A stretch of DNA of 64,000 nucleotides from a virus. Positions within the stretch are counted from its first letter, which is position 1, and each line of letters starts with the position of its first letter. The translations under genes and the position numbers were made by a program. The notes under the pieces are model-generated. The model worked only from the letters and a program-made list of their open reading frames with translations. It was not told where the DNA came from and did not search any database. The stretch is taken from the IMG/VR virus record IMGVR_UViG_3300028027_000061. One strand, written 5' to 3'. Positions 2,889 through 56,225 of this stretch are shown in pieces.

Positions 2889-2905
2889 TTCTAAAGGAAT
2901 ATATA

Positions 2906-3142: not shown

Positions 3143-3147
3143 TTTAT

Positions 3148-27111: not shown

Positions 27112-27410
27112 TGGTAACTGAGTATTGGGTAGTTCGCATCAATTATAATCAAATTGACCGTGATCATGTTCTTGTAGATGCTGCAACAGCAAAAGAAGCA
27201 GAGCAACGTCTCCGTGATAATGGATGTAATGCTCCTTATATTAAGGCGATGTATAAAGCAAAGGTTTCGAAGTAATGAATTTAAGTCGTAAAGAACGTAT
27301 CACTGCATACATCGCCAAGTGGATTGTTTTGAACATCGCTTGTCGTATCAATGCAACTGCCGTATTGTCGCTCAGTATGGAAGCGACCCGAATATACATT
27401 GGAAAGCAAA

Positions 27411-29913: not shown

Positions 29914-30722
29914 TGGAATATAGTATTGCTATTCCGTCTTATCATCGTGAACATACTATTCAGAATAAGACGTTGAAAGTTCTTGAATCATATAACATCG
30001 ATCCTGCTAAAATCACGATCTTTGTTAATGATCAGGATGAAGGCGAATATGATCGATATGCTAATGCGTTGAAGGAAAACCCTTACGCAAAGGATATCCA
30101 GATTGTTCGTGGTGTTCCAACTATCGGAAAACAACGTAACTTTATTGAACGTTGGTATCCGGAAGGCACACGACTGATGATGTTCGATGATGATATTGAA
30201 GAAGTTCAAGTCAAAGTCAGTGAACAGAAGTTGGGTCGTGTCGAAGATCTCGAGCGAGAAATCTTTATTCGTGGATTTGAGGAATGCGAGAAGGTAGGTG
30301 CTAAGACCTTTGGTATCTACGCAGCATCGAATGCATTCTTTATGAAAGATCGAGTATACAATGACATTTGCTATATCATTGCCTCGATGTTTGGTGTGAT
30401 TGTTGAACATGATGATTTTCTCGCTCGAGTAACCAACCATGGTGAAGACTACGAATATTCTATTCGCCAGTATATTAAGAATGGTGTTCTTGCTCGCCTT
30501 GACAACTACACAGTCAAGTCTCGGTACTACAAGGAAGAAGGTGGACTTCAAGATGTTCGCACTAAGGAATATGTGTATGACAGTGTGAAGATTATTGCGG
30601 ACGAGTTCCCCGACCTTTGCACGATGTATATCCGCGAAACTACTGGACATGCTGAATTGAAACTGCATGACCGCAACAAGAAGTATCGTAAAGTAGAATC
30701 TTCACTAGAGGATCTATTTTAG
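29913..30722 (+). CDS. GT-A glycosyltransferase (TET-associated-like)
   Basis: IAIPSYHRE start and DxD-like MFDDDIEE. ATGG overlap with the upstream gene. Confidence 0.45.
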   Translation: MEYSIAIPSYHREHTIQNKTLKVLESYNIDPAKITIFVNDQDEGEYDRYANALKENPYAKDIQIVRGVPTIGKQRNFIERWYPEGTRLMMFDDDIEEVQVKVSEQKLGRVEDLEREIFIRGFEECEKVGAKTFGIYAASNAFFMKDRVYNDICYIIASMFGVIVEHDDFLARVTNHGEDYEYSIRQYIKNGVLARLDNYTVKSRYYKEEGGLQDVRTKEYVYDSVKIIADEFPDLCTMYIRETTGHAELKLHDRNKKYRKVESSLEDLF

Positions 30723-30759: not shown

Positions 30760-31878
30760 ATGATACTAGAAAAAACAGATGCAGAATACATTGGTCGTCG
30801 ATTTATTGATTATATGTCAAACTATAATCGTATCGACGACCACATGCGTATGAAAAAACTTGAGCGATTAAAAACTCTTCCTTCCACACTTCCAGGATAT
30901 GAACCAGAGAATATGTTGTTCTCTGATTTTAGTATGCACCCAGAAGATATGGAATTTGAGATCTTTGAACCAACTGCCAGCGAGTTCTCGACTATGGTTG
31001 AGATTACTTCTTCTTTCTGCAACGAGAACTCATTCGGCAAAGAAATTAAATTTATTGTTCGCGAGAAGAACAGTGGTAAGTATGTTGGTTTCTGTCGAGT
31101 CGCAAGCCCATTCATCAATTCTAGACCGAGGAATGAATGGTTCGGGCAAGTCCCCGATCTAAAGTCATTCAACAAGCATGCAGTAATGGGATTCATTATT
31201 GTTCCAACACAACCGTTCGGTTTTAATTATCTCGGCGGTAAACTGCTTGCACTTCTTTGCGCATCTCATGAATTTCGTGAAATGTTCAATAAGAAGTATG
31301 ATATGGAAACTTGTCTCTTTGAAACGACATCATTATACGGAAATATCAAGCAAGCATCGCAGTATGATGGTCTTAAACCATTTTTACGGTACACTGGCGA
31401 CACTGTTAGCAATTTTCTCCTCTCATTCTCCGATGATTTTTGGTTTGAGACCTTAAATTGGTTTGCAAGCAAAAATAATGGCGAACCTTTGTTCGGCAGA
31501 GAGGGAATTGCGTCGTATAAGATGAAAATGCAAAATAAAATGATGTCAATTATCAAAAATTCGCTAAAATATCATAATTCTAGCGAACTTTTGGCGTTTA
31601 CAGACGCAATTCAGGCGAACAAAGACGTTACGACGCAAAAAAGATTTTATATTTCAACTTATGGGTACGAAAATTCGAAAAATTACATCCTCGGAACCGA
31701 TAAAACGCTGATCAAGAGCAAAGAAAACTTCGACAAGCACTATTCAGATAATATTATTCGCTGGTGGAAGAAAAAAGCGTCTTCAAGATACGAAAATCTG
31801 AAGTCAGACGGAAGATTGCGTAACAATCTTGAAATTTGGAACAATGACACCATTGATACAATTGATATCATCCGTTGA
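30760..31878 (+). CDS. hypothetical protein (372 aa)
   Basis: Long ORF in the same operon. No confident family. Confidence 0.4.
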   Translation: MILEKTDAEYIGRRFIDYMSNYNRIDDHMRMKKLERLKTLPSTLPGYEPENMLFSDFSMHPEDMEFEIFEPTASEFSTMVEITSSFCNENSFGKEIKFIVREKNSGKYVGFCRVASPFINSRPRNEWFGQVPDLKSFNKHAVMGFIIVPTQPFGFNYLGGKLLALLCASHEFREMFNKKYDMETCLFETTSLYGNIKQASQYDGLKPFLRYTGDTVSNFLLSFSDDFWFETLNWFASKNNGEPLFGREGIASYKMKMQNKMMSIIKNSLKYHNSSELLAFTDAIQANKDVTTQKRFYISTYGYENSKNYILGTDKTLIKSKENFDKHYSDNIIRWWKKKASSRYENLKSDGRLRNNLEIWNNDTIDTIDIIR

Positions 31879-31899: not shown

Positions 31900-33177
31900 G
31901 TGAGTATAACAATGGCAACAATAGAGCAACTCAATAATATTAAACAAATCATCGAGGGTGTAGATGGGTTCTCTATAAGAACCTCTACACCCTCAAAGAT
32001 TGTAGTCGATTGCGACAAAGACAGACAAGAAGCAAAAACTCTTCTTGAGTCTACATTCAAAGACAACGACATTAAATTTAAAGAACAGATTGTTTCTGGT
32101 TCTTCTTTTCCTGCAACAGTGATTGATGGGCAAAGTCTCAATATCATTTACAAGAACAAACGTGGTGGAGGGATGCAAGAAACAACACTAAATTCTTCGA
32201 TCACCGAACTGTTTCCTTGTATTGCATTCTTGACAAAGATTGAAAATCAAGATTTAAGCACGATTGATAAGTTTTACGCTGCAATATTAAAAAATAACAG
32301 CACAGATCTAAGTTGTTACATTAGAAATGACAATATTGCTGGAAAAGAATTCGTAGATAAAGCAGAAACCTCTTCGAAGTTCAAACAGAAAACAACTGGC
32401 GCACTTGCTGTCCTAAAATTCATCCGAGAACAAGATAAAGGTAAACCAATAACTGATGTTTATTGGGGATATAGAAACAAACCAACTGGTGTTCTTCCAA
32501 ACCACAAAGGTGACATATTTTTAAAGTTCAATGATAACTCTATGGTTGGTGTCTCGATAAAATCAGGCGGTGCCAAAACACAAGAACCTAAATTGAACAC
32601 ATATGTAAATCCTATTATGGAGTGGTTTGGTAAAAAAGCAGAATTCGATAAAATGAAAGTAGAAGCATTTAATCTGTTCTATACTGATATTCCAGGAATG
32701 CCGAAAGATCCCAAGAAAGTTGGATCTAGAGAGTTCTACGATTCACTGGGTAAATACGAACTTTCCAACAAACAAGATTATGATAAGAAGTATGATGCTG
32801 TGTTGGAGTATATGCGTTCTAAACTGGTAGAACTATTATCAGCGAATGATGCTAAAACAAAGAAATGGTTGACGGAAGTCGTTGCTGGTGAACAAGAGGG
32901 TGTTCCTCTGGTCGTGGTAAAGGCAATCGAAACAACAGGCGACTTTGAGTTGCAGACAGATGAAGATGTTATTAAATCATGCGTAGTCAGATCTAAAAAG
33001 ACGGGTGGATTGAAGATAGAGAAATCCACTACATCAAAACAGAATTTTGACATATCATTGACTTGCAATCTCAGAGTTACTAAACTTAATTTCAGTATAA
33101 GATCGAACAAGGTGGGTGTTCAACATAAGTTGGGGCAATTCCTAAATTTGGCAGTTAAATTTAACGGTGCCAAGTAA
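31900..33177 (+). CDS. putative PD-(D/E)xK-type nuclease
   Basis: Candidate D-x(n)-[ES]xK core (HKGDIFLKF ... VGVSIKSGG). Weak family call. Confidence 0.3.
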   Translation: MSITMATIEQLNNIKQIIEGVDGFSIRTSTPSKIVVDCDKDRQEAKTLLESTFKDNDIKFKEQIVSGSSFPATVIDGQSLNIIYKNKRGGGMQETTLNSSITELFPCIAFLTKIENQDLSTIDKFYAAILKNNSTDLSCYIRNDNIAGKEFVDKAETSSKFKQKTTGALAVLKFIREQDKGKPITDVYWGYRNKPTGVLPNHKGDIFLKFNDNSMVGVSIKSGGAKTQEPKLNTYVNPIMEWFGKKAEFDKMKVEAFNLFYTDIPGMPKDPKKVGSREFYDSLGKYELSNKQDYDKKYDAVLEYMRSKLVELLSANDAKTKKWLTEVVAGEQEGVPLVVVKAIETTGDFELQTDEDVIKSCVVRSKKTGGLKIEKSTTSKQNFDISLTCNLRVTKLNFSIRSNKVGVQHKLGQFLNLAVKFNGAK

Positions 33178-33183
33178 AATCTT

Positions 33184-33191
33184 ATAAATAG
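33184..33191 (+). promoter_or_regulatory. T4-type late promoter candidate (TATAAATA)
   Basis: Exact octamer 7 nt upstream of ATG 33198. Confidence 0.35.
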
Positions 33192-33197: not shown

Positions 33198-33485
33198 ATG
33201 ACATACGATGCAATATTTAAATTAATTGGAGACGTGGGTTTCCCAATCGCAGGCGCTTTACTTGCGGGTGTCTTTGTGTATTTTGTAATCAACTACATTC
33301 TGGAGAGCGTTGTTAAGGCGCTCAAGGGAATGCAGGGTATTATTATGGGACTCGACAATCGAGTCAAGACAATGAACCATGATATTATTCGCGTTGATGC
33401 AGTTGTTAGTTCCGCTTTAGGTCTTAAACCAGATCTAGATAGAATAGCACGAGCAGACGGGAAAAACGATGCTCGGAAAGATTAA
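33198..33485 (+). CDS. small membrane protein, tandem paralog A (holin-like?)
   Basis: One N-terminal TM helix (FPIAGALLAGVFVYFVINYIL). Paralogous to the next ORF. Both end in ...KD. Confidence 0.4.
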   Translation: MTYDAIFKLIGDVGFPIAGALLAGVFVYFVINYILESVVKALKGMQGIIMGLDNRVKTMNHDIIRVDAVVSSALGLKPDLDRIARADGKNDARKD

Positions 33486-33751
33486 TGGACCCATTAATTA
33501 TAACAGAACTAGTTAAACAATATGGATTCCCGATCGTCGCCTCTGTCGGCATGGGTTACTTTGTTTGGTTCATTTATAAGTTCGTAACTGATAAATTAAT
33601 GCCGTTGATTAGTGAAACCAATGTGATTTTGATTGCGTTGATTGACCGTGTTCGCATGCTTGACAACGATTTAATTAGATTAAACCAGAAGGTGAGCGTA
33701 GTTTTACAAATAAAAGAGGATCATAGCAATGACAATCAACCTAAAGATTGA
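33485..33751 (+). CDS. small membrane protein, tandem paralog B
   Basis: Same architecture (GFPIVASVGMGYFVWFIY). ATGG overlap. Confidence 0.4.
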   Translation: MDPLIITELVKQYGFPIVASVGMGYFVWFIYKFVTDKLMPLISETNVILIALIDRVRMLDNDLIRLNQKVSVVLQIKEDHSNDNQPKD

Positions 33752-33819: not shown

Positions 33820-34269
33820 ATGCTAAAACGAGCGATGATGCTCCTGACGCTACTAAGTCTAAGTAGTCCAGCATACGCAGATCCTATAGTCCAACAGTTT
33901 AAATCACCTTCCTTTACAGGTTACGGGTGGTCTTCACACGTGCAGTCAATCGACGCACAAGAGCGTTCGCGAGAGCAGGCAATTAAAGATGCTGAGGCAG
34001 CAAAGGCAGCATTAGCAAGAGCAGAGGCATCTAATACGCCACTCGCCAAATTCATGGCGCTGTTTACCTCTCAGGTATATGCCCAACTTGCTACACAACT
34101 TTCGAACAATTTGTTCGCAGAAGGTGGGAATGCCAGTGCTGGAACATTTAACCTCGACGGTAACTCTGTGAGTTATGTAAAGACTGGGACAGAAGTTAGA
34201 CTAACAGTTGTCGATAAGAATGGCAATACTACAGTTGTTGTCGTTCCTATTGCTACATTCGCGTTTTAA
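33820..34269 (+). CDS. csgF: CsgF-like curli assembly protein
   Basis: Signal peptide (MLKRAMMLLTLLSLSSPAYA). The C-terminal ...SYVKTGTEVRLTVVDKNGNTTVVVVP resembles the CsgF beta-rich C-terminus. Immediately upstream of csgG. Confidence 0.45.
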   Translation: MLKRAMMLLTLLSLSSPAYADPIVQQFKSPSFTGYGWSSHVQSIDAQERSREQAIKDAEAAKAALARAEASNTPLAKFMALFTSQVYAQLATQLSNNLFAEGGNASAGTFNLDGNSVSYVKTGTEVRLTVVDKNGNTTVVVVPIATFAF

Positions 34270-34278: not shown

Positions 34279-35103
34279 ATGAAAAAAATAATTCTCCTTC
34301 CAATTCTACTAGCAACTTCTGGTTGTGTTGGTGCGCTTCATCCTACTGCCAACCAATCATATCTGTTCAGAGATGATGCAGAAGTCAAACGTTTTGCGAA
34401 TCCAAAATTGTTCAAGAATCTTCCTGAATTAGATGGCCAACCAATTCCTATCGCGCTGTATTCATTTACTGATAGAACTGGTCAACGTAAACCATCTTCA
34501 ACTCTTGCAAGTTTCTCGACTGCAGTAACTCAAGGTGCAGATGCTTATCTGATCAAAACACTGCAAGATACAGGAGACGGTAAGTGGTTTACACCAGTCG
34601 AGCGTGTTGGTATTGATTCGCTGATCAAAGAACGTCAACTTGTTCGTCAAATGCGCGAACAACTTTCTGGCGAGAGTGCTGAACCTCTTCCACCACTCAA
34701 GGTTGCTGGTATCATCTTAGAAGGTGGTATTATTGACTATAACTCGAATATTAAAACAGGTGGTACTGGTGCTAGATTCCTTGGCATCGGTCCATATCAA
34801 CAATACACCCAAGATCAGGTAACAATTAGTCTTCGTCTGGTTTCTGTCCAAACTGGCGAAGTTCTAAATTCAGTTACAGTGGAAAAGACAGTTCTCTCGA
34901 CTTCCGAGGGGGTGACTGCGTTCACATTCTTCGACATGGCGACTAGAGCATTTGAATTTGATGGACAACAAACAAGTAATGAAGCAGGTAGTTATGCGAT
35001 CCGTTCTGCCATAGAAACGGCCGTTGTTGAGTTGATCAAGGATGGTGAAAGAAAGAATCTATGGAGATTCAAACAAAAGGAAACGACAAATGAAACTAAG
35101 TAA
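34279..35103 (+). CDS. csgG: CsgG-family curli secretion channel lipoprotein
   Basis: Lipoprotein signal with lipobox LLATSGC. 274 aa. CsgG-like central region (...IDSLIKERQLVRQM ... ILEGGIIDYNSNIKTGG...). Confidence 0.6.
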   Translation: MKKIILLPILLATSGCVGALHPTANQSYLFRDDAEVKRFANPKLFKNLPELDGQPIPIALYSFTDRTGQRKPSSTLASFSTAVTQGADAYLIKTLQDTGDGKWFTPVERVGIDSLIKERQLVRQMREQLSGESAEPLPPLKVAGIILEGGIIDYNSNIKTGGTGARFLGIGPYQQYTQDQVTISLRLVSVQTGEVLNSVTVEKTVLSTSEGVTAFTFFDMATRAFEFDGQQTSNEAGSYAIRSAIETAVVELIKDGERKNLWRFKQKETTNETK

Positions 35104-35863
35104 GTTTTTATTAGTTGGTGCTGCTCTTTGTTATGGAACATCTGTGATTGCACAAACTGTACTGCCAACAGCACCAACTCCTCCAGCAATTGTAACAACT
35201 TCGCCAAATGAAACAGAGGCAAATACTGTTGCAACTACAAATAAGGTATATATCGATCAAGAAGGGGGCAACGTAGATGTTAACATCGTTCAAACTGGCA
35301 CTGCTAACGTTATCGGTTCTTCTATTGATCCTATTTACCTACGTGGTGATAACCAAAGCGTTATCGCAATACAAACAGGCAATGGAAACCAACTTTATAT
35401 GGGTGTCGTATCCGACACAGGAGCACAAGGAATCGCCGATGTAACAATTCGTCAAATTGGCGATTTAAACACTGCTACTATTCGTTGTGGGACAGAAGTA
35501 ACTGACTCCTCATGTAATCAACTCGACATGAATGCCAAGTTCACTGGTAATAACAACTCGTTTGTTTTCCGTGGTTCGGGTGCTAATATCCGTAACTCTA
35601 TGGATTTCAACGGTAACAATAACACAATCAACATGGATGCACTATCACCAAATGCGTCACAAACTATTCTGGTGACAGGAAACTACAATGACTTTGATGT
35701 TACACAAACTGGTACTGGTGGAACATTCGGTCACTCGCTTTATGTTAATCTAACAGGTTCATTAAACACTATAACAACACAACAGTATGGTGTTTCTGAG
35801 ACTGTGATCAATATTAATAGTGTGGGATCAAATGGCACGTTTAATATCAAAACTGGTCACTAA
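35090..35863 (+). CDS. secreted curlin-repeat (CsgA/CsgB-like) amyloid subunit candidate
   Basis: Signal peptide. Imperfect ~22-aa repeats of the form x-Q-x-G-x-G/N-N-x-(A/V)-x-I, e.g. IDQEGGNVDVNIVQTGTANVI, IAIQTGNGNQLYM, FNGNNNTINM. N/Q/G/T-rich. Confidence 0.5.
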   Translation: MKLSKFLLVGAALCYGTSVIAQTVLPTAPTPPAIVTTSPNETEANTVATTNKVYIDQEGGNVDVNIVQTGTANVIGSSIDPIYLRGDNQSVIAIQTGNGNQLYMGVVSDTGAQGIADVTIRQIGDLNTATIRCGTEVTDSSCNQLDMNAKFTGNNNSFVFRGSGANIRNSMDFNGNNNTINMDALSPNASQTILVTGNYNDFDVTQTGTGGTFGHSLYVNLTGSLNTITTQQYGVSETVININSVGSNGTFNIKTGH

Positions 35864-36977
35864 TCTTCTACTGATATTTCTGTTATCGACTCCTGCCTTT
35901 GCGGATATTGGGTCGATAACAGATTTCAGAGGAGGTGGTGCCATTAAGCGTGGCGCCAAGACTACAGTTGCATCTAAGGGTGCAAGAGTTCAAAAGATGG
36001 ACACTGTTTCAACAAACAGTCAAGGCAGATTTAGGATAACATTTAATGACTCGACTACCGTCAATATTACAGAAAACTCTCGCCTTCTTGTGGATGACTT
36101 TGTGTATGATGGGGGAGGGAACACGAAGGGCAAACTTGGACTTCGGGTCGCGCTTGGCACCGTCAGATACGCATCAGGTAAAGTCGCAAAAACAAATCCA
36201 CGAGGCGTAAACATTCGCACACCGACTGCCACTATCGCAGTCCGTGGCACAGACTTCGTTATGTCGGTTGATGAAGCAGGTCGTTCTACGGTCGTGCTGG
36301 TTCCCGAATGTTATAACGAACTAGACATTACAAAACAAACTGCGGAATGTCCGAATGGAATGATAGATGTCATTACAGCATCTGGCGTAGTTACATTAAC
36401 ACAACCATTCCAAGCAACAGTTGTGGAAAACAACTTTGCGCCACCTGCTCCGCCAGTAGTTATCAATCCATTAGTTAAGACATTAGATAACAATGTTCAA
36501 ATTGTTCCGTTGGAAACAGATGATGGTCAGAGTTTGCTCCAACTTGCCAGAGATAGTCTAAAGAAATTTACGAATCCCGCAAAAGCAGCATCGGATGATA
36601 ACAAAGACCCAGATGCAGGCACAAACGATAACGTGGAACAAGTTACAGTTGCTATGCTTCGCCAAGCAACACCGCAAGAACTTCTGGATGTTTATGCCGA
36701 GTTCAACGAAGGAACCAAACCAGCAGAAACAATCTATACTAATGTATCGCCAACATTCAAGAAGAACGTTCAGGTTGGTTGGGTGTATACTCGATTATCG
36801 GACGACAAACAACAAGCAATTACTGTTTGGTTAGAAAAAGGAACAGAAGCGCAAGTCGTATCTGTTCAAAATGGATTAGTAGATGTTTACAACTTTATGG
36901 ACGACAAGTGGACAACATCGGGAACTGGTAGACCACAGGGCAATATCACAGTGATGCAAGAAACAGGTGCAAGATGA
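35832..36977 (+). CDS. secreted FecR-domain-like protein
   Basis: Signal peptide (LLLIFLLSTPAFA). Central beta-rich region RFRITFNDSTTVNITENSRLLVDDF ... LRVALGTVRYASGK. Confidence 0.35.
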   Translation: MARLISKLVTNLLLIFLLSTPAFADIGSITDFRGGGAIKRGAKTTVASKGARVQKMDTVSTNSQGRFRITFNDSTTVNITENSRLLVDDFVYDGGGNTKGKLGLRVALGTVRYASGKVAKTNPRGVNIRTPTATIAVRGTDFVMSVDEAGRSTVVLVPECYNELDITKQTAECPNGMIDVITASGVVTLTQPFQATVVENNFAPPAPPVVINPLVKTLDNNVQIVPLETDDGQSLLQLARDSLKKFTNPAKAASDDNKDPDAGTNDNVEQVTVAMLRQATPQELLDVYAEFNEGTKPAETIYTNVSPTFKKNVQVGWVYTRLSDDKQQAITVWLEKGTEAQVVSVQNGLVDVYNFMDDKWTTSGTGRPQGNITVMQETGAR

Positions 36978-38428
36978 AAAAACTAATCGCTCTATTCCTA
37001 CTATTCTTTGCAATTCCAGCATTCGCACAAGTTACAAACTATGGATTTGAGAATGGCGACTATGCTGGGTGGACAGCAAGTAATGGTAGCACAACACTAA
37101 GAACATCTTGGAGCGATTCAGGTAATGGCGTCCAAGTAACTACTGGTGTGCAAAATTATTGTCCAGGTGGTGGTAAGTGTTGGACAATTACACCATACGG
37201 TTCATACATGGTTTCTCTGCAAGCAGGCGGTAGTTCTCCACAATTTAATGCTGCAATGACAACACTTGGTCTGCAAAGTTCTACCATCACAACAATTAGA
37301 AATACCATTTACTCCAATGGTAACATGTATCCAACTAATGCTACTTCGATTAGTAGAACAGTCTTTCTTCAGGCAGGTGTTACATACACCTATGCTTGGC
37401 AATATCTTTCAACTGATTATGTTCCATACAATGATGGATCGATGATCACTGTTACTGGTGGACCTGGAACTGCGACTATTAATGGTCAGACACAAGACTA
37501 TGCTCTACTCGGATTTACGAACCAAGGTACTGGTAATTATTCGGTAGGATCTTATGGTGCTACTGGTTGGCAGGTCGCAGTGTTTACTGTTCCTACTGAT
37601 GGTAACTATCTTCTAGGATTTGCTTCGTTCAATCTAGGTGATACTGCATTGTCACCAATTCTATTCATCGACCAGATGCAAGGAACAACTTCACTGAATG
37701 GCACAACATTTACACCTGTTGCACCAAACGCTGGTTCTACTGCGCCACCGCCTCCTGCACCTGAACCACCTGCTCCAACATATCCTCTCGCTTCTATCAG
37801 CGCAAACCAATCATTGAAGATTAATCAAACAAATGCGATTACACAAAACTCTATCTATATCAATGTAACGGGCTCTAGCAATTCTGTTTACATCGAACAG
37901 TTCTCTAAGCAGAACCAAATCCGTGGTGTGAATGGCGCACAAGCAATGACGATTAATGGCAACAGCAACAGCGTAACTATTAATCAGGGAACAGCGACAA
38001 CACCAATTGGTAAGAACTTAGCAGAAGTTTCCGTTACTGGTAATAACAACATAGTCTCATTGACGCAACAACAAGGTAGCAAATACGCCGAGATTATCAC
38101 TAATGGTCTCGGTAATCAAATCTCAGCGCAACAAAAAGATGCTGGAGGAAAATCGTTGTTTATCAATGCTTTAGGAAACTCTAATAATATCAGTACCTTA
38201 CAACAGGGAACTGCTAACCATTTTCTAGATATCAGCGCACCATTTGGTGGAGTTACTGCATCCGTCACTCAATTAGGTTCTTCGATGAAGCAATTTCAAC
38301 TTTTACTAAATAGTCCTGGAATTGGTGTAACTGTCACGCAAAATAACTTGACCGCTGCCGACTCTGCGAAAATGGAAATAACATGCACGACTGGACCATG
38401 TAATGGATACTCTTATACAAAAAACTAA
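36974..38428 (+). CDS. secreted protein with N-terminal beta-sandwich/lectin-like domain and C-terminal curlin-type repeats
   Basis: Signal peptide. Pro-rich linker (APPPPAPEPPAPT). C-terminal repeats SIYINVTGSSNSVYIEQ / AMTINGNSNSVTINQG / EVSVTGNNNIVSLTQQ / LFINALGNSNNISTLQQG. Confidence 0.45.
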   Translation: MKKLIALFLLFFAIPAFAQVTNYGFENGDYAGWTASNGSTTLRTSWSDSGNGVQVTTGVQNYCPGGGKCWTITPYGSYMVSLQAGGSSPQFNAAMTTLGLQSSTITTIRNTIYSNGNMYPTNATSISRTVFLQAGVTYTYAWQYLSTDYVPYNDGSMITVTGGPGTATINGQTQDYALLGFTNQGTGNYSVGSYGATGWQVAVFTVPTDGNYLLGFASFNLGDTALSPILFIDQMQGTTSLNGTTFTPVAPNAGSTAPPPPAPEPPAPTYPLASISANQSLKINQTNAITQNSIYINVTGSSNSVYIEQFSKQNQIRGVNGAQAMTINGNSNSVTINQGTATTPIGKNLAEVSVTGNNNIVSLTQQQGSKYAEIITNGLGNQISAQQKDAGGKSLFINALGNSNNISTLQQGTANHFLDISAPFGGVTASVTQLGSSMKQFQLLLNSPGIGVTVTQNNLTAADSAKMEITCTTGPCNGYSYTKN

Positions 38429-40457
38429 AAAAGTTCTACTCTCGCCTTGGTTGGCACTAATTACTTTTGCGGTATTGTTAACAGTAAAACTAGCAAACCC
38501 ATACTTGGTTGAATCCACAAGATTGAAGTTTTATGATTATTTGATGCTCGGTTCACCGACGCAATCCGAACAAATTGTAACTGTTAATATTGGGGAGAAA
38601 GCAATTGAAAAATATGGACAGTGGCCTTTCCCTCGCGAAGTCCACGCTAAAATTATTAGCGATATTTATGGCAGAGGGGCTGCTCTTGTTGGTAGCACTA
38701 TACTTATGCCTGAGCCTGATCGTCTCGGCACTGACGGAGCTCTTGCTGATGCTCTGAGCAAGTATCCAGTAGTCCTGAGTCAGACAGTAACCGATTCATG
38801 TAAGGCAGGGAACCAGAATATCGCTCGGACTGGCGTTGCCGTCGTCGGCGACGGAGAAGCAACTGAATTTCTTCCTCAATACCCGTGCGTTCTAAGTAAT
38901 ATTCCACCTCTGCAAGAAGCAGCCGTCGGTGTAGGGATAACGTCGACTCTACCCGAGACTGATGGGGTTGTGAGGCGAGTTCCTCTTCTATCTCAATCAA
39001 AAGGCGAATACTATCCTGCATTTGCGATAGAGATGCTGCGTGTAGCTGCAGGAGACTCTTCGTATCAAGCGAAGATAAATCAGACTGGGGTCGAAGCATT
39101 ACGAATTCCTTCTTTTGAAACTATTAACACAGATGAATATGGAAGAACGTTCATTAATCCTAACTACCAATTTCCGTCATACGAAATTGGAGAGGATCCT
39201 TTACCTGTCCTGAGTGGTAAAATCGTGATTGTTGGCGTAACTGCTGCTGGTATTTCGAATCCTGTAGCGACTCCTTCAGGTGCGCAACATCCCCATCAAC
39301 TCCAGGCGAGTATTCTTGAAACTCTGATAAATGGGGATTCTGTTTCGGTTCCGAACTGGTCAGCAATTGCGGATCTTGCTGCATTTCTTGGTCTTGCTCT
39401 GGCATTGATCATTCTTTCTCGTTTTAGATTCTCTATAATTTATATTGCTATTTTACTCGGTGGATATTTCTATCTACCTGTTTATCTGTTCGCGAGCAAA
39501 GGTATTCTGTTCGATGTAACATTTAACATATTTGCTATTGCTCTCATCTATATTCACATCTTTACCGCAAAGTATATTTCTGAATATCTACAGAAGCAAC
39601 AAATTAAGAAACAGTTCGGAACCTATCTGTCACCAGATCTTGTTGCTCAGTTACAGAGACAACCAGAACTTCTGGCGCTTGGTGGCGACTCCCGAGAACT
39701 ATCAATTATGTTTACAGACGTTCGTGGATTCACTACAATCAGTGAACACTACGGCGAAGATGTTCAAGGTCTTACTAAGATTATGAACCGCTACATGACA
39801 GTGATGACAAGAGCAATCCTCGAGAACAAGGGGACACTAGACAAGTATATCGGCGATGCTCAAATGGCATTCTGGAATGCACCATTAGATAATAATAAAC
39901 ATGCCGTAGACGCAGTAAGAACTGCTTTTCAGATGTTAAAAGATTTGGAGACTTTCAATGAAGATATTAAAGAAGAAGGCATTCCAGCTTTCGGTATGGG
40001 TCTTGGTATTAACACTGCCACTGTGGTTGTTGGTAATATGGGCAGCGATCAGCGTTTCGATTATACTTGTTTGGGCGATGGCGTTAATCTGGCTGCTCGT
40101 CTCGAAGGTCAATCCAAACCTTATGGCGTCAAACTCGTCCTCGGACCACAAACTGCCGAATTGGTTGGGGATGTATACCAAGTAGTAGAACTTGACTTGA
40201 TTGCAGTTAAAGGTAAGACAGAACCTGCTAGAATATATACGGCATTCCCGTTCTTTGATGCAGCAGGACATTTACAACATGATAAGTTCTTACAACTGTA
40301 TCGTGAAGGTAAATGGGAAACTGCTAAAAAGTTTGCCAGCGACTTAAAGAAGTGCTGGCAAGGGGAGTTGGTAAATTACTATGACATGATGCTCGAGCGC
40401 ATGGAGGGTGAACCTCCTGCTAACTTCGACGGAATATATCGTGCAACGTCCAAGTAA
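38403..40457 (+). CDS. CHASE2-domain class III adenylate/guanylate cyclase
   Basis: N-terminal TM plus a large periplasmic domain. About four TM helices. C-terminal CYCc catalytic core (FTDVRGFTTISE ... YIGDAQMAFWNAP ... GLGINTATVVVGNMGS ... DYTCLGDGVNLAARLEG). Confidence 0.6.
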   Translation: MDTLIQKTKKVLLSPWLALITFAVLLTVKLANPYLVESTRLKFYDYLMLGSPTQSEQIVTVNIGEKAIEKYGQWPFPREVHAKIISDIYGRGAALVGSTILMPEPDRLGTDGALADALSKYPVVLSQTVTDSCKAGNQNIARTGVAVVGDGEATEFLPQYPCVLSNIPPLQEAAVGVGITSTLPETDGVVRRVPLLSQSKGEYYPAFAIEMLRVAAGDSSYQAKINQTGVEALRIPSFETINTDEYGRTFINPNYQFPSYEIGEDPLPVLSGKIVIVGVTAAGISNPVATPSGAQHPHQLQASILETLINGDSVSVPNWSAIADLAAFLGLALALIILSRFRFSIIYIAILLGGYFYLPVYLFASKGILFDVTFNIFAIALIYIHIFTAKYISEYLQKQQIKKQFGTYLSPDLVAQLQRQPELLALGGDSRELSIMFTDVRGFTTISEHYGEDVQGLTKIMNRYMTVMTRAILENKGTLDKYIGDAQMAFWNAPLDNNKHAVDAVRTAFQMLKDLETFNEDIKEEGIPAFGMGLGINTATVVVGNMGSDQRFDYTCLGDGVNLAARLEGQSKPYGVKLVLGPQTAELVGDVYQVVELDLIAVKGKTEPARIYTAFPFFDAAGHLQHDKFLQLYREGKWETAKKFASDLKKCWQGELVNYYDMMLERMEGEPPANFDGIYRATSK

Positions 40458-40620
40458 GTAGGAATGTATTTGGATTCTTAAAATCAAAATACACAGTATC
40501 TTCTGTCGGTTCTTCCTTTAGTGAATAGAGTTCGCTCTCAACTCGACCGAAGTGTTGATCGAGTTCCTGATCGTGAATTGATGTAGACATTAAAAACTTC
40601 TCCCAATTGTATGTCGGCAA
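40420..40620 (-). CDS. hypothetical small protein (doubtful)
   Basis: ORF overlaps the cyclase 3' end by 37 nt. Confidence 0.2.
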   Translation of the reverse strand: MPTYNWEKFLMSTSIHDQELDQHFGRVESELYSLKEEPTEDTVYFDFKNPNTFLLTWTLHDIFRRS

Positions 40621-40805
40621 AATTGCCGAAATAGTTCCTCAAAATCGCCTCTCTTGTAGACCCATGCATCATAAAGACTCTGTGCGACAGGAATATCGCT
40701 ACTTGACTTACTAACGTAGTAACCTCGATCTGTGAGTTCTTCGATCAGATCCTGATCATCAAAGTCATCCATATAAACTTCGACTTCTGTAGTAATGCTA
40801 ACCAT
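40590..40805 (-). CDS. hypothetical acidic protein
   Basis: 71-aa ORF on the minus strand. Confidence 0.35.
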   Translation of the reverse strand: MVSITTEVEVYMDDFDDQDLIEELTDRGYYVSKSSSDIPVAQSLYDAWVYKRGDFEELFRQFCRHTIGRSF

Positions 40806-41011
40806 TATGCTGCAATCCTTTTCTTATATTCAAGACGACCTTCAAGGTATTCCTCGAAAGATTTATAAGTGGGAACACCGTTCGCTTCGAGTTCGAAGTT
40901 TATTTGAGCGAACTCTTCAAGTTCGTATCCCCAACCATTCCACGGAATCCCGAGGAGTTCCAACAATTCTTCTTCACGAGAAATTATTTCAACAGTCATC
41001 ATATTCTCCAT
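40805..41011 (-). CDS. hypothetical acidic protein (start MENMMTVEI...)
   Basis: The minus-strand promoter gggcttgactttt ... tatagt lies directly upstream (41015-41055). The track's longer 149-aa version would run through that promoter, so it is rejected. Confidence 0.4.
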   Translation of the reverse strand: MENMMTVEIISREEELLELLGIPWNGWGYELEEFAQINFELEANGVPTYKSFEEYLEGRLEYKKRIAA

Positions 41012-41014
41012 CAC

Positions 41015-41055
41015 AATATATTCACTATACCCTAGTTTATGGTAAAAGTCAAGCC
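41015..41055 (-). promoter_or_regulatory. minus-strand early promoter (GGGCTTGACT-N-TATAGT)
   Basis: The reverse complement reads ttagggcttgacttttaccataaactagggtatagtgaat. Confidence 0.5.
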
Positions 41056-41060
41056 CTAAA

Positions 41061-41339
41061 TTACATTCGGTAATATTTTTGTCGATAATATAGGGCGGAC
41101 TCAAGATGAAATTCGTCGTGGCGTTCCCAGAAAGACATTTTCCGTTCAGCGATTTCAATTTCTTTTCCGGCTTGAATTTTCTCTTTAGGATCAGGCGAAT
41201 TCCCAAAAATGTGACGCAGAACAAAATGGTTATAGGAATGATTCGCCCAAGCACTATTAGGGTTCATTTTACGAATCAGGAACGGATCAAAATCCTTTTT
41301 GTTCTTGGCATTACCAGACGTTTCATAAAAAATAGACAT
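41061..41339 (-). CDS. hypothetical protein
   Basis: Minus-strand ORF with RBS ggagg. Preceded by a minus-strand promoter. Confidence 0.4.
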   Translation of the reverse strand: MSIFYETSGNAKNKKDFDPFLIRKMNPNSAWANHSYNHFVLRHIFGNSPDPKEKIQAGKEIEIAERKMSFWERHDEFHLESALYYRQKYYRM

Positions 41340-41468: not shown

Positions 41469-41870
41469 ATGACTATGCACCTGATGTCTCATGCGTATAC
41501 CACCACTAATACGAAGAAGCGCAAGACTTCTAATAAGGGTGTGACTGCCAAGTATGCACAGGACTGGGTGGATTACAACAAGCAGATGAAGCGGATTGGT
41601 TGTAAGACCAAAACGTTCGACGAGTATGTCCAATATCGTCAAGGCAATTACAAACCCAAGTTGCGTGGCACACCTCTCCCTGACTACCAAGTCAGCGACC
41701 ATCGTCAGAAGTATCCTTCTGGTGACGGTATTGGCGTAACCTTCGCTCGCAAAGAGAATACATATACAGGTACGCTGATCAAAGGAATCGCCACCATGCA
41801 TAAATCTAATGCAGTTCCCATTATAAATGATGAGCAAGCAATTGAAGTAGCAAGGATGCGACGAGGATGA
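41469..41870 (+). CDS. basic hypothetical protein (first gene of the radical-SAM operon)
   Basis: 133 aa. K/R/T-rich N-terminus. Confidence 0.4.
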   Translation: MTMHLMSHAYTTTNTKKRKTSNKGVTAKYAQDWVDYNKQMKRIGCKTKTFDEYVQYRQGNYKPKLRGTPLPDYQVSDHRQKYPSGDGIGVTFARKENTYTGTLIKGIATMHKSNAVPIINDEQAIEVARMRRG

Positions 41871-43186
41871 ATGTACGGGAAACATTAGATTCCGTTGGTA
41901 AGGGATTTTGTCCACAGAAATGGAGATGGCTTGGTCTCTCTTTACATACAGGACAATCTCATAGTTGTTATCATCCTCCATTTTTAACAGTTCCACTCGA
42001 TGAGATTAAATTAGATCCGTCTGCTCTACATAACAATTCTTCTGCAAAACAAGATCGAAAGAAAATGCTCGAGGGCGGAAGACCTGACGGGTGCACATTT
42101 TGTTGGAACATCGAGGATATCGGAGGAAAAAGCGATCGTATTTTACGAAACTATCCGTCAAAAAATAGTATGCTCGATTACATGTCCGAAACAGAAGTTC
42201 TACGCAATACTCCATGGGATTCTAATGTAAATCCATACATGGTAGAAGTTAGTTTTTCTAACTCCTGTAATTTTAAGTGTGGTTACTGTTGTCCGTCGGT
42301 CTCTTCTCTGTGGGAAGATGAAGTAAACCAACATGGTAATTATGATTTACAGTACGACCAATATGGGATAAACGGTAAGATATATTCTGAGAAAGAATAC
42401 AATCCATATGTTGAAGCATTCTGGAAATGGTGGCCTGATTTAAAAAATGATTTGAGGATTTTTCGAATTACTGGCGGTGAACCTCTGATGACAACAAACA
42501 CATTCAAACTATTAGATATGCTGAAGGAAGACGGTAATCCTGAATTATCGCTCCAAATAAACACAAATCTGGGAGTGAGTAATCGCAAAGTTAAAGATTT
42601 CTGTGGGCGAGTGCAGGAATTGGTTGAAATAAACCATATTAAAAATTTTAGACTATTCACCAGTCTTGAGTGCACAGATAAGCAAGCAGAATATATTCGT
42701 CGTGGTCTAAACTATGAATTGTTCTTGGAAAATGTTAACACTGTTCTAGAAACGGTGCCGACTGCATATCTAAGTTTCATGTCAACATATAACGTTCTTA
42801 CGGTTCCCTACTTCAAAGATTTTTTGCAGTTAATTGTAGAACTTCGCAAAAAGTGGGGTGATCGGATTCTTATGGATATTCCGCACCTTAAAGAACCACC
42901 TCATTGGACAATGAATATTCTTCCAAAATCATGGGGTGTGCACATAGATAATGACGTTGAATTTATGCTCCTGGATGGAGGATTTCGAGATGTTGAGATT
43001 GCTAAAATGAAACGGGTGCGTGATTATTTTTATAATGACACACATAACATAACAGAAGAATATAGATTGAATGCTAGAAAAGATTTTGCCAAGTTCTTTC
43101 CGGAATATGACCGTAGAAGCAACAGTAATTTGGCAGAAACGTTTCCCGAATTTATAGAATTTTTAGAATGGTGTAAGGAATTATAA
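41867..43186 (+). CDS. radical SAM enzyme, paralog 1 (N-terminal Cys motif read as SPASM-like)
   Basis: CxxxCxxC SNSCNFKCGYCCP. GGEP motif FRITGGEPLM. N-terminal FCPQKW ... SCYHP ... GCTFCW Cys motif. Confidence 0.6.
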   Translation: MNVRETLDSVGKGFCPQKWRWLGLSLHTGQSHSCYHPPFLTVPLDEIKLDPSALHNNSSAKQDRKKMLEGGRPDGCTFCWNIEDIGGKSDRILRNYPSKNSMLDYMSETEVLRNTPWDSNVNPYMVEVSFSNSCNFKCGYCCPSVSSLWEDEVNQHGNYDLQYDQYGINGKIYSEKEYNPYVEAFWKWWPDLKNDLRIFRITGGEPLMTTNTFKLLDMLKEDGNPELSLQINTNLGVSNRKVKDFCGRVQELVEINHIKNFRLFTSLECTDKQAEYIRRGLNYELFLENVNTVLETVPTAYLSFMSTYNVLTVPYFKDFLQLIVELRKKWGDRILMDIPHLKEPPHWTMNILPKSWGVHIDNDVEFMLLDGGFRDVEIAKMKRVRDYFYNDTHNITEEYRLNARKDFAKFFPEYDRRSNSNLAETFPEFIEFLEWCKEL

Positions 43187-43189
43187 GAC

Positions 43190-43774
43190 ATGGTTAATTT
43201 TGATGTTGTAATGTTATGGATGCAATACATCCGTAATAATCCAGAGAATGCATATCGTTTCTCGGAAAACTTTTGGCCGAGTCAGATCGAAAGTAAGAAA
43301 TGGTTGCTTGAACACGTAACTCCAATGGATCGATCTATCGTAATTTTCGGTGGATGGTATGGAGTTCTTGCACAGTTTATTGCACATAAATTTCCAGATG
43401 CCCGAATTCTAACCACAGATTTAGATTCTAGTTGTAGGCATGTATTCGCTGCTATCGACGAATGTTATCACGATATTGTCTTCCGTCAACATGACATGAA
43501 AAATGGTATGCCAATCAACGTACACCCCGATCTGGTGATCAATACCAGCAGCGAGCATGTTACGCAAGAAGTTTACGATGCTTGGTGGGACTCTATCCCT
43601 AGCACGACTAAATATATCGTCCAAGGAAATAATCTAGAAAATCCTGAGCATGTTCGTCTTGCTAATAGTCTAGAGGAATTCTTAAAAATCAACAACATTG
43701 AAGATCCGCAATATGCAGGTATGTTGAAGTGTGGGCATTTCTATAGATACATGGCAGTGGGTTATAAAAAATGA
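43190..43774 (+). CDS. small class I SAM-dependent methyltransferase-like
   Basis: Rossmann motif VIFGGWYGVLAQ. Acidic TTDLD. Later VINTSSEH. Confidence 0.4.
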   Translation: MVNFDVVMLWMQYIRNNPENAYRFSENFWPSQIESKKWLLEHVTPMDRSIVIFGGWYGVLAQFIAHKFPDARILTTDLDSSCRHVFAAIDECYHDIVFRQHDMKNGMPINVHPDLVINTSSEHVTQEVYDAWWDSIPSTTKYIVQGNNLENPEHVRLANSLEEFLKINNIEDPQYAGMLKCGHFYRYMAVGYKK

Positions 43775-45195
43775 GTGATAGTGCGCACGAAGAGCATAAT
43801 CTAGACGTCCATTCAGTAGATTCATACTGGAATTTTCTCAAAGAAAAACGAGAAGTAATCAACGCAGTTAGTCCATCTTTTTGTGCAGCAAAATGGAAAC
43901 AATCAACCATTCTTTTGTATAGCGGTGAGACACATAGTTGCCACCATCCCTCGCGACACAAGATTACTCTAGAAGATATTAAAGATAATCCACGTGGTAT
44001 TCACAATACTGCTGTTAAAAAGGCAGCACGTATTGACATGCTTAATGGCGTACAAACCAAAGAATGCGATTATTGTTGGAAGATTGAGAATCTAAACAAA
44101 GATTGGATGAGTGATCGGATATACAAATCCACATATTCGTGGGCGCTACCGCACATTGATGAAATTGTCAAATCTGGCGATGGTGCGAATATCGATCCGT
44201 CATATCTGGAAGTTGCATTCGAATCTACTTGCAATTTTAAATGCGTATATTGTAGTCCAGAAAGTTCTTCTAGATGGCAAGAAGAAATCGAAACTCATGG
44301 TCCGATCGAACTAGAAGATTTCAAATTACACGATCTTGAATGGTTGAAGGAAGTTGGAAAACTTCCAATTCATCGCAAAGAACAAAATCCATATATTGAT
44401 GCTTTCTGGGAGTGGTGGCCTGACCTCTATCCCAATTTACATACGTTTAGAATAACTGGTGGTGAACCCTTGCTCAGTAAACATACTTGGCGAGTTCTTG
44501 ATTATATCGCGGAGAACCCAAATCCTAATTTGACACTCGCGATTAATACTAATCTCAATGTTCCTGATAAATTAGTCGAGAAATTGGTGGAATACATCAA
44601 TAGAATCTCTTGCAATATTAAACTGTTTGACGTATACACATCATTAGAGAGCACTGGTAAACATGCTGAGTATTCTAGATTTGGTATGCAATTTGATGAG
44701 TTTAAGAAGAACTGTAAGTATGTCTTAGATAATACGCCGAATACAACACGGTTGCATTACATGACAACCATAAATTTAACAAGCGCACCAACTCTTCTGG
44801 AATATTTGGAATATATCAGAGAAATGCGATTGAAATATTACAGTAAGATACATGAATTTAGAGTAAGAACTCATCTGTCATATCTACGGTGGCCGAGAAT
44901 GTTATGCTTAACCTTACTTTCAGAAGAAGATAAAAAACGATTTGGCGATTCTTGGATAGAATATGTTGACAAACATAAATTAACTTCTAGAAAATCAATC
45001 GAGGAAACGTTTTACTTAGAAGAAGTTGATCAAGTAAAGCGATTAGTTGACTACATGAGATCGACAAAAGAATCGCAGTCTTTATATAAAGATTTTAGAA
45101 ACTATACTCGCAGTTTGGATAAACGCAGGAAAACATCTTTCGTAGACACCTTCCCAGAACTTGCATATTTGATGGATGATGACTATTATGGATGA
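43771..45195 (+). CDS. radical SAM enzyme, paralog 2
   Basis: STCNFKCVYCSP. FRITGGEPLL. N-terminal FCAAKW ... SCHHP ... ECDYCW. Confidence 0.6.
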   Translation: MSDSAHEEHNLDVHSVDSYWNFLKEKREVINAVSPSFCAAKWKQSTILLYSGETHSCHHPSRHKITLEDIKDNPRGIHNTAVKKAARIDMLNGVQTKECDYCWKIENLNKDWMSDRIYKSTYSWALPHIDEIVKSGDGANIDPSYLEVAFESTCNFKCVYCSPESSSRWQEEIETHGPIELEDFKLHDLEWLKEVGKLPIHRKEQNPYIDAFWEWWPDLYPNLHTFRITGGEPLLSKHTWRVLDYIAENPNPNLTLAINTNLNVPDKLVEKLVEYINRISCNIKLFDVYTSLESTGKHAEYSRFGMQFDEFKKNCKYVLDNTPNTTRLHYMTTINLTSAPTLLEYLEYIREMRLKYYSKIHEFRVRTHLSYLRWPRMLCLTLLSEEDKKRFGDSWIEYVDKHKLTSRKSIEETFYLEEVDQVKRLVDYMRSTKESQSLYKDFRNYTRSLDKRRKTSFVDTFPELAYLMDDDYYG

Positions 45196-46513
45196 CGGAT
45201 TACTTCAATTCAGAAACAGTATACTAAATTCTAAATCTGCATCGTTTTGCGGCGCAAAATGGGGCAATAGTACACTGTGGTTAAACAGTGGAGAAACCAG
45301 CAGCTGCCATCTTCCTCCTGTTCATAAAATAGATCCAGAGCAAATTTTATCAGATCCAGCAAAACTGCATAATACTGATCATAAAAGTAAGATGCGACAA
45401 CTTATGAAAGATGGGCATAAACCTTCTGAGTGCGATTACTGCTGGAAGATCGAGAGCATGGGACCCGATTATATTTCAGATCGTGTTTTTAAGTCGTTGC
45501 AGTTTACACCAGAAGAAATGCAATCTTGGTTTGATAAACCAGCAGATGCTCGTATTATCCCGCCTACATTAGAAGTTATGTTTGATAGAACCTGTAATTT
45601 TGCATGCAGTTATTGTAATGCAAATTTTAGCACAACTTGGGAACGAGATATAAAGAAGCACGGACATTATAATCTTGAAACTGCAGGTGGTGGGGCGTTC
45701 AAGCATGATGGTACTACAAATAATTGTCACGAGAAAACAGAAAATCCATATATCAAAGCATTTTGGGAATGGTGGCCAGAACTTAGTAAAGAACTTCGCA
45801 CACTAAGAGTTACTGGTGGTGAACCGCTGATGAGCACAGATGTTTGGAAATTAATAGATCTGTTTGCAGAAGAGAAATACAAATTCGAATTAGGAATCAA
45901 TAGCAACCTTGGTGCAAAAAAATCCATCATAGATAGACTAATAGAGAGATCGCACGATATTAATAATCTTACTATCTTCACAAGTATGGAAACTACGGGT
46001 GCGCAAGCAGAGTATATTCGTGATGGATTAGATTATAACTCTTGGTGCGATAATGTTGAGCGGATTCTTGGAGAATCTAATGTGAAACGTATCGTTGTTA
46101 TGATGACGATTAATGCATTGTGTCTCTTCAACGTAACTGAAATTATGGATCAAATTATGCTATGGAAACGTCGTTATGGAAATCGTATAAGCATGAGTAT
46201 AAACTTTCTTCGGTTTCCTGCGTTTCAGAGTCTAACTGTTTTGCCAGATTCTATTAGGGAAACTGCTTACCAGAATCTTAGTGATTGGATCCAGAAAAAT
46301 AGAGACAATCCCGATCTTATGTTTACCGAGAAGAGTGATGTTGAACGATTAATTTCGTATGTAAATATCATTGAAACACCGCATTCTTACGATACTGATC
46401 TTGAGAAGAATCGCAAAGATTTTAAAAAGTTTTATTCTCAATATAGTTATCGTAGGAATAAACCAATAGATGTATTTCCACAGGAGTTTTTACAATGGTT
46501 CAATACTCTTTAA
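45176..46513 (+). CDS. radical SAM enzyme, paralog 3
   Basis: RTCNFACSYCNA. LRVTGGEPLM. N-terminal FCGAKW ... SCHLP ... ECDYCW. Confidence 0.6.
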   Translation: MMTIMDDGLLQFRNSILNSKSASFCGAKWGNSTLWLNSGETSSCHLPPVHKIDPEQILSDPAKLHNTDHKSKMRQLMKDGHKPSECDYCWKIESMGPDYISDRVFKSLQFTPEEMQSWFDKPADARIIPPTLEVMFDRTCNFACSYCNANFSTTWERDIKKHGHYNLETAGGGAFKHDGTTNNCHEKTENPYIKAFWEWWPELSKELRTLRVTGGEPLMSTDVWKLIDLFAEEKYKFELGINSNLGAKKSIIDRLIERSHDINNLTIFTSMETTGAQAEYIRDGLDYNSWCDNVERILGESNVKRIVVMMTINALCLFNVTEIMDQIMLWKRRYGNRISMSINFLRFPAFQSLTVLPDSIRETAYQNLSDWIQKNRDNPDLMFTEKSDVERLISYVNIIETPHSYDTDLEKNRKDFKKFYSQYSYRRNKPIDVFPQEFLQWFNTL

Positions 46514-56222: not shown

Positions 56223-56225
56223 TAA

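Follow-up and report, generated by a model that had tools for sequence, protein, structure and literature searches.

The window analysed here is a stretch of 64,000 nt of viral DNA (IMG/VR record IMGVR_UViG_3300028027_000061), which represents part of a phage genome. At positions 38403-40457 it carries a gene whose product joins a CHASE2 sensor domain to a class III nucleotide cyclase domain, and this gene closes a cassette of curli-type genes (type VIII secretion system, T8SS). We consider it likely that the protein is a functional, membrane-anchored and signal-gated class IIIb adenylate cyclase, which ends a late envelope cassette and reports a periplasmic or surface cue by means of 3',5'-cyclic AMP (cAMP). 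The gene and its parts are the following (aa, amino acids; TM, transmembrane segment):

38403..40457, plus strand: gene of the CHASE2-sensor cyclase, predicted class IIIb adenylate cyclase; ATG start, 684 aa, last gene of the cassette
38472..39407, plus strand: CHASE2 domain, aa 24-335, from Pfam and hydropathy; periplasmic, between TM1 and TM2-4
39579..39692, plus strand: juxtamembrane linker, a cyclase-transducer-like segment, aa 393-430, from conservation and the alignment with 6fht
39693..40232, plus strand: class III cyclase catalytic domain, aa 431-610, bearing D439, K481, D485, T555, N562 and R566

The domain composition was established with Pfam. CHASE2 (PF05226) matched residues 24-335 with E=2.5e-38 and 132.6 bits against a cut-off of 26.3, and the match is nearly complete (profile positions 5-255 of 257). 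Guanylate_cyc (PF00211) matched residues 432-607 with E=1.5e-17 and 64.2 bits (cut-off 21.9); no NCBIfam model matched the protein. Hydropathy gave one TM segment at about residues 10-33 and three at about 318-392, and this 1+3 topology therefore puts CHASE2 outside the cytoplasm and the cyclase domain inside it. From N- to C-terminus the protein thus leads from a TM helix through the periplasmic CHASE2 domain and a block of three TM helices to a conserved linker and the class III cyclase domain. The linker aligns with the segment ahead of the CyaB1 catalytic domain in 6fht. An AlphaFold2 monomer model of the full-length protein, made from an input alignment of 25 metagenomic homologues at 83-95% identity, reached a mean pLDDT (predicted local distance difference test) of 46.5 and a pTM (predicted template modelling score) of 0.34, and was unusable. 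The original prediction, made from the letters of the DNA, had named a phage-encoded CHASE2-sensor class III cyclase with CHASE2 lying between TM segments. It agrees with the Pfam domains, with the phage genes in the window and with the hydropathy profile.

The motifs FTDVRGFT and IGDAQMA, which had been described as intact parts of the catalytic core, are in place: FTDVRGFT begins at residue 437, DKYIGDAQMA at residue 480 and FDYTCLGDGVNLAARLE at residue 552. The metal-binding residues D439 and D485 and the transition-state residues N562 and R566, whose loss had been named beforehand as the sign of a pseudo-cyclase, are all present, and they align with identical residues of CyaB from P. aeruginosa (3r5g) and CyaC from Spirulina (1wc0). 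The substrate-binding lysine K481 and T555, the Thr in place of the class IIIa Asp, are likewise identical in the CyaB and CyaC alignments. Class IIIa cyclases have Asp where class IIIb enzymes have Thr, and Lys/Thr is the adenine-specifying pair of class IIIb cyclases in the classification of Linder and Schultz. The guanine-specifying set Glu/Cys (or Glu/Arg/Cys) is absent from the window cyclase, and the alignment proposed earlier as a check of ATP versus GTP specificity falls on the ATP side.

The PF00211 profile by itself does not discriminate between adenylate and guanylate cyclases. Comparison with PDB sequences by phmmer placed class IIIb adenylate cyclases in all of the top 15 matches, with CyaB, CyaC, Cya1 and CyaB1 at the head and photoactivated adenylate cyclases after them. 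The best match was P. aeruginosa CyaB (3r5g, E 6e-30), followed by Spirulina CyaC (1wc0/1wc1, E about 1e-28), and further matches included Synechocystis Cya1 (2w01) and the Nostoc CyaB1 domain in 6fht; the E values of solved class IIIb relatives against the catalytic domain ranged from 1e-23 to 6e-30. Because of the Lys481/Thr555 pair and these closest solved relatives, we predict that the window protein is a class IIIb adenylate cyclase and that its product is cAMP, not cGMP. CyaB, CyaC, Cya1 and CyaB1 share its catalytic and Lys/Thr residues but carry other sensor modules (MASE2, GAF/PAS and others) in place of CHASE2. Several solved class IIIb cyclases are reported to respond to bicarbonate/CO2 with higher activity.

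The window is from a T4-like myophage. On both sides of the cassette there are T4-like genes for replication, lysis and the baseplate, and the phage genes of the window include a gp59-type helicase loader, gp32 single-stranded DNA-binding protein (SSB), PhoH, a RecE-like exonuclease, an endolysin and a clamp-loader-like ATPase. A late-transcription coactivator domain is encoded as well (Pfam scan). In gp32, Methylophilales phage Melnitz (57% identity) and Pelagibacter phage HTVC008M (54%), both from Kyanoviridae, come closest among the deposited phages. Megablast of 20 kb around the cyclase gene against deposited phages gave no match, and relatives surfaced only in protein-level searches. In metagenomes, close relatives of the cyclase (83-95% identity) make up more than 120 protein clusters, on contigs of up to 174 kb, and IMG/VR has a relative on at least 587 viral contigs. 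In GC content the cyclase gene agrees with the surrounding DNA.

Is the enzyme maintained among related phages? Four catalytic residues (D439, K481, D485 and R566) are invariant in 71 of 71 phage orthologues. T555 is kept in 69 of the 71, with Asp in Melnitz and Ser in HTVC008M as the exceptions, and N562 in 70, with Ser in Melnitz. The two cyclases of deposited phages that depart from the common set are:

L001, 8974-11025: Melnitz cyclase, Asp for Thr and Ser for the transition-state Asn
L002, 8992-10827: HTVC008M cyclase, Ser for Thr, without the C-terminal helical tail of about 70 aa

Pairwise ratios of nonsynonymous to synonymous substitution rates (dN/dS) against the window gene were 0.13-0.19 overall, and by domain 0.08 for the catalytic part, 0.09 for the TM block and 0.19 for CHASE2. 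The gene, with a dN/dS of about 0.14, is under purifying selection. The linker (393-430) has a mean conservation of 0.87, equal to that of the catalytic domain, and many of its residues are invariant even in comparison with the 39%-identical Melnitz and HTVC008M cyclases, which argues that signal transmission has been maintained besides catalysis. In CHASE2 the residues of the WPFPR and DGVVRR motifs are invariant among diverged phage homologues.

The gene is found at the end of a cassette with the following members (L163 is a related locus, 92% identical):

33198..33485, plus strand: small single-TM/coiled-coil protein 1, 95 aa; called in L163, no Pfam family
33485..33751, plus strand: small single-TM/coiled-coil protein 2, 88 aa, paralogue of protein 1
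33820..34269, plus strand: CsgF-like T8SS protein with a signal peptide, Pfam CsgF E=4.1e-17; start set by the gene call in L163
34279..35103, plus strand: CsgG outer-membrane curli pore lipoprotein, Pfam CsgG E=2.3e-53
35090..35863, plus strand: secreted curlin-like (CsgB-like) repeat protein, a weak assignment; position conserved in all related loci
35832..36977, plus strand: secreted FecR-domain protein, 381 aa, signal peptide, Pfam FecR E=2.5e-13
36974..38428, plus strand: secreted 484-aa repeat protein, variable cassette member

All cassette genes lie on the plus strand, and adjacent genes overlap by 4-32 nt. The order (two small TM proteins, CsgF, CsgG, curlin-like protein, FecR-domain protein, repeat protein, cyclase) is common to Melnitz, HTVC008M and every IMG/VR locus with enough flanking sequence. 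We counted co-occurrence in 48 viral CsgG loci, each with at least 6 kb of downstream sequence. FecR was present in 48 of 48 and FecR together with the cyclase in 45, the cyclase being missing in three. This strict synteny backs the link to the co-encoded amyloid genes that had been proposed from the sequence. Each of the remaining products of the cassette either begins with a sequence resembling a signal peptide or is a tiny membrane protein. The cyclase is therefore alone in having a substantial cytoplasmic domain, and it is the only route by which the cassette can pass information to the cytoplasm.

The other components of the cassette differ in constancy. The 484-aa repeat protein, which is the sole variable gene and is absent or diverged in many lineages, begins with a globular part, continues with a Pro-rich linker and ends in N/Q-rich curlin-like repeats; it belongs to no Pfam or NCBIfam family, and its repeats weakly resemble the curlin-like protein (E=0.006). 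In the FecR-domain protein no anti-sigma N-terminal domain was detected, and the cassette has no sigma factor gene. Both small TM proteins are 53% identical to the same-position open reading frames (ORFs) of HTVC008M and Melnitz; between distant phages they are better conserved than CsgF or the cyclase. The pair stands directly upstream of CsgF in each of the three genomes:

Window, 33198-33751: small-ORF pair
L001 (Melnitz), 4267-4905: small-ORF pair
L002 (HTVC008M), 3920-4482: small-ORF pair

On the other side of the cyclase gene, between it and a radical SAM cluster, the minus strand has a group of three or four small ORFs (40420-41254), with products of 66, 71 and 149 aa among them. They belong to no known family, and L163 has gene calls for counterparts at the corresponding place.

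Different parts of the cassette have had different histories, as seen from the comparison of loci L070-L080 and L022-L041 with window positions 38403-40457. One lineage has a window-like cyclase (CHASE2 70-84% identical) together with CsgF, CsgG and FecR that are only about 40% identical. In another lineage the catalytic half of the cyclase is 82-89% identical (about 85%) and the CHASE2 half only about 45%. These patterns suggest recombination both within and beside the cyclase gene. With such a mosaic cassette, a lock-and-key interface between FecR and CHASE2 is therefore unlikely.

Among bacterial proteins the closest are CHASE2 cyclases that match over their full length, with only 31-38% identity. 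They come mostly from alphaproteobacteria (Bradyrhizobium, Mesorhizobium, Methylobacterium, Rhodospirillales), with some from SAR86 and Elusimicrobia. Of the 80 closest bacterial loci, none had CsgG/CsgF within 10 kb of the cyclase; a FecR-domain gene was found in 23 and abuts the cyclase in at least 11. On the chromosome of Bradyrhizobium centrosematis (L102, 4748-12136) the gene immediately upstream of the CHASE2 adenylate cyclase codes for a 1,692-aa FecR protein with an N-terminal FecR domain, cadherin-like/immunoglobulin-like repeats and an RTX-type C-terminus. The same arrangement of FecR protein and cyclase, with ORFs of 1,200-2,100 aa, was seen in other Bradyrhizobium and Methylobacterium loci. 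The pair of a FecR-domain surface protein and a CHASE2 adenylate cyclase thus looks like an ancestral bacterial (alphaproteobacterial) signalling pair, and its joining to T8SS appears to be a phage innovation. The latter agrees with the report that FecR and adenylate cyclase are not part of bacterial T8SS operons (PMC9599517).

That report, by Wittmers et al. 2022, described the viral module of T8SS, FecR and adenylate cyclase in pelagiphages (PMC9599517). There the cyclase phylogeny points to Alphaproteobacteria, the module is expressed in metatranscriptomes and was present at every ocean station analysed, and the cyclase is not always present. The module is preceded by a gene named as a histidine kinase, sometimes by two, and these genes are called short, diverged or paralogous. 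They are probably our two small TM proteins, in which no HisKA/HATPase_c or other kinase domain was detectable with Pfam. The paper does not mention CHASE2, cyclase class, topology or bicarbonate. Cyclase homologues have also been annotated, in HTVC008M (2013; AGE60353, 'adenylate/guanylyl cyclase') and, with an equivalent annotation, in Melnitz (QZI94833); two myophage papers discuss the curli genes and leave the cyclase unmentioned. Our literature search found no later work following Wittmers et al. 2022 and no paper with wording such as 'phage-encoded adenylate cyclase'. With these annotations and the described module, the novelty of the gene had been overstated, and by its sequence the window cyclase can be classed as a divergent new member of a known viral module. 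What we add is the predicted assignment to class IIIb with cAMP as product, the architecture of CHASE2, TM helices and linker, figures for selection and linkage, the neighbouring FecR-adhesin and CHASE2 genes of Bradyrhizobium, a candidate late promoter and the domain-level mosaicism.

The module of HTVC008M and Melnitz is the same as that of the window in gene order, in the two small upstream ORFs, in its T4-like myophage context and in full-length homology of the cyclase. It differs in sequence, with the cyclase only 39% and gp32 54-57% identical, and in place: the window cassette lies about 18 kb upstream of gp32, whereas in HTVC008M and Melnitz it is directly downstream. The window has about 41% GC, which is among the differences, and Lys/Thr/Asn at the informative positions, where Melnitz has Lys/Asp/Ser and HTVC008M has Lys/Ser and no C-terminal tail.

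The candidate promoter stands just ahead of the cassette:

33183..33190, plus strand: TATAAATA, T4-type late-promoter-like motif, in the 20-nt gap ahead of the first small ORF

In the window this motif has five copies, all on the plus strand. In Melnitz and about 24 close relatives it lies 588-687 nt upstream of CsgF, and none is found inside the cassette there. This placement suggests a single late transcript that would run from TATAAATA to the cyclase, beyond which the genes switch to the opposite strand. Scans of the cassette for sigma-70 promoters and terminators gave background level.

The following mechanism can be proposed. The cassette is probably transcribed late. A periplasmic or surface cue tied to the curli-like machinery, with the FecR-domain protein as its probable relay, would lift the auto-inhibition by CHASE2, by analogy with CyaD1 of S. 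meliloti. The extracytoplasmic CHASE2 domain would control the cytoplasmic catalytic domain through the three TM helices and the conserved linker, and the catalytic domain, presumably as a homodimer, would turn ATP into 3',5'-cAMP. The resulting rise of cAMP in the infected cell might be read by host cyclic nucleotide monophosphate (cNMP)-binding or CRP-family proteins, or by a phage receptor.

Among CHASE2 cyclases, CyaD1, CyaD2 and CyaK of S. meliloti are the best characterised. They sense an extracellular protein by way of the outer-membrane beta-barrel NsrA, and their cAMP acts through Clr (PMC13001267). Removal of CHASE2 makes CyaD1 constitutive, and the FecR-domain gene smc02177 adjoins cyaD1 (PMC5498481). 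These proteins resemble the window cyclase in combining CHASE2 with a class III cyclase and, in the case of CyaD1, in the adjacent FecR-domain gene. Input to their pathway passes through NsrA, whereas the window co-encodes another outer-membrane barrel, CsgG, which, so far as tested, is no homologue of NsrA. The phage cyclase differs also in being joined to CsgG/CsgF and curlin-like genes, and no Clr/CRP-type receptor was found for it in the Pfam and tblastn searches given below. FecA-FecR-FecI of E. coli offers a works-like analogy only: there a periplasmic FecR domain couples an outer-membrane protein to an inner-membrane/cytoplasmic output, but the phage FecR protein has a signal peptide, the cassette lacks a sigma factor, and the presumed output is the cyclase.

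What could read the cAMP? Among the 25 Pfam families listed, of 27 in all, for 59 further ORFs of the window, there was no cNMP_binding, CRP, GAF or histidine kinase family, and a tblastn search with E. coli CRP, of low sensitivity, found no CRP-like gene in Melnitz or HTVC008M. Published work on cAMP/CRP in Pelagibacter was uninformative on this point. The neighbours of the cyclase are FecR, the repeat protein and the small reverse-strand ORFs, and no effector gene is adjacent. We do not claim a cAMP phosphodiesterase in the 193-aa calcineurin-like Metallophos protein (27351-27932), a candidate that we had weighed: its Pfam match is marginal, it is small and it lies 10 kb away. The superfamily to which it belongs includes cAMP phosphodiesterases, and nothing links this protein to the cyclase.

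The failure to find a reader in these searches weighs against a cyclase that signals from the cassette, and so do several other results. The curlin identity of both repeat proteins is weak: for the curlin-like protein, Curlin_rpt (E=6.9e-4) was under the cut-off and NCBIfam CsgB (E=3e-4) far under it. The number of TATAAATA copies is not enriched relative to shuffles, and among the more distant loci about half lack the motif at the conserved place. A strict co-evolution of FecR with CHASE2 was tested and none was found (Spearman 0.40). Finally, with Asp555 and Ser at the transition-state Asn position in Melnitz, activity may differ in some members.

If the cyclase is a gene of host takeover unrelated to curli, then a flood of cAMP would trigger a CRP-type starvation or catabolic programme of the host to the advantage of phage production, and the linkage to T8SS would be merely historical. 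The host is the target by default when no phage cAMP receptor is found, the cyclase and its upstream genes recombine independently, and the three viral T8SS loci lacking the cyclase are matched by the statement that it is not always present (PMC9599517). Constitutive flooding, however, would not need the sensor and linker that purifying selection has kept, nor would it explain FecR and cyclase staying together, overlapping and in the same order, in 45 of 48 viral loci, and the FecR-CHASE2 cyclase pairing is found in bacteria too. We hold such a role to be rather improbable. We are equally reserved about an extension of the preferred reading, in which the cassette is a virus-built trans-envelope sense organ. 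Its curli-like fibre would bear the globular head of the 484-aa protein and, with CsgG/CsgF, signal that neighbouring cells, particles or superinfecting phages have been encountered, and the chain from FecR through the CHASE2 cyclase to cAMP would retune late infection, the cAMP pulse setting lysis timing, superinfection exclusion or aggregation. If true, this would be a functional analogue of T4 lysis inhibition, built from a bacterial adhesin-FecR-CHASE2 pair grafted onto T8SS.

The remaining explanations concern the chemistry of the enzyme and the source of the DNA. The original prediction had also proposed a decoy or counter-signal in cyclic-nucleotide antiphage defence, that is, a cyclic nucleotide interfering with Pycsar, CBASS or related immune signalling. 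This found no support, and we give it very little credence. The PADLOC PycC models (hidden Markov models) do match the catalytic domain, the best being PDLC00734 with E=7.5e-25, but such matches are expected, since PycC shares the class III fold. No solved Pycsar (pyrimidine) cyclase appeared among PDB matches even at E<=5, when CyaB and CyaC stand at 1e-28 to 1e-30. In contrast to Pycsar, the window has the adenine-binding class IIIb pair, a periplasm-sensing membrane protein inside an envelope cassette, no paired cNMP-binding effector gene and a phage rather than a defensive context. On specificity residues, PDB ranking and context we therefore set the Pycsar reading aside as very improbable. 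To our knowledge 3',5'-cAMP is not a signal of known cyclic-nucleotide defence systems. A guanylate cyclase, or a dead pseudo-cyclase acting as a membrane scaffold for the secretion apparatus, is just as hard to accept: it could be argued from the indifference of PF00211 and from the Ser of Melnitz, but the lack of the Glu/Cys set, Lys/Thr kept in 69 of 71 orthologues, the conserved metal-binding and transition-state residues and the catalytic dN/dS would be unexpected for it. That the region is bacterial, as a host island or a mis-binned contig, we regard as practically negligible. All cassette genes do have bacterial homologues, yet those of the cyclase are distant and, in the 80 closest loci, never near CsgG/CsgF; T4-like genes flank the cassette on the same contig, the same cassette occurs in two cultured and sequenced phages, and the GC content of the cyclase gene fits its surroundings.

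A signal-gated adenylate cyclase would overturn nothing known. Viral curli/T8SS modules are abundant in aquatic phages, and the cyclase offers a natural experimental handle on their purpose. Its predicted class IIIb type (cAMP, possibly responsive to CO2/bicarbonate), its CHASE2 gate and the FecR/CHASE2 pairing sharpen the question of a secretion device, a sensor or a combination of the two.

Other features of the window, away from the cassette, are:

144-3222: 12 tRNA genes (Val, Gln, Ser x2, Met, Lys x2, His, Leu, Ile, Cys, Glu) at the window start
56200-56658: permuted (two-piece) transfer-messenger RNA (tmRNA), Rfam match 56232-56567, tag peptide ANDNVAFAGYALAA as in Melnitz
57684-58286: gp59-type helicase loader
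58493-59416: gp32 SSB
62137-62835, minus strand: baseplate hub

Throughout the window no riboswitch, for glutamine or other, scored at or above the Rfam gathering cut-off. The motif TATAAATA also occurs within the tmRNA 5' end (56217) and just downstream (56664).

Upstream of the cassette a TET/JBP oxygenase gene (28576-29913) is followed by one for a TET-associated glycosyltransferase (29913-30722) and then by a DruA/DUF4338-like gene (30760-31878). In L163 (2121-4777) a module of ADDT and a P-loop kinase replaces the oxygenase and glycosyltransferase, and the DruA-like gene is retained. This DNA-hypermodification island looks like a swappable modification cassette beside a Druantia-like domain. 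A 425-aa ORF (31900-33177), which lies between the DruA-like gene and the curli-type cassette and is absent from L163, has its own TATAAATA ahead (31879); it has no convincing family, with a weak fimbrial-adhesin-like match at E=0.0075. Downstream, at 41867-50930, there are about seven co-directional genes, several of which are of the radical SAM/SPASM type (41867-43186, 43771-45195, 45176-46513 and others to 50103). They are followed by a Nol-like carbamoyltransferase (50999-52423). The run is conserved in L163 and may form a peptide- or sugar-modification pathway.

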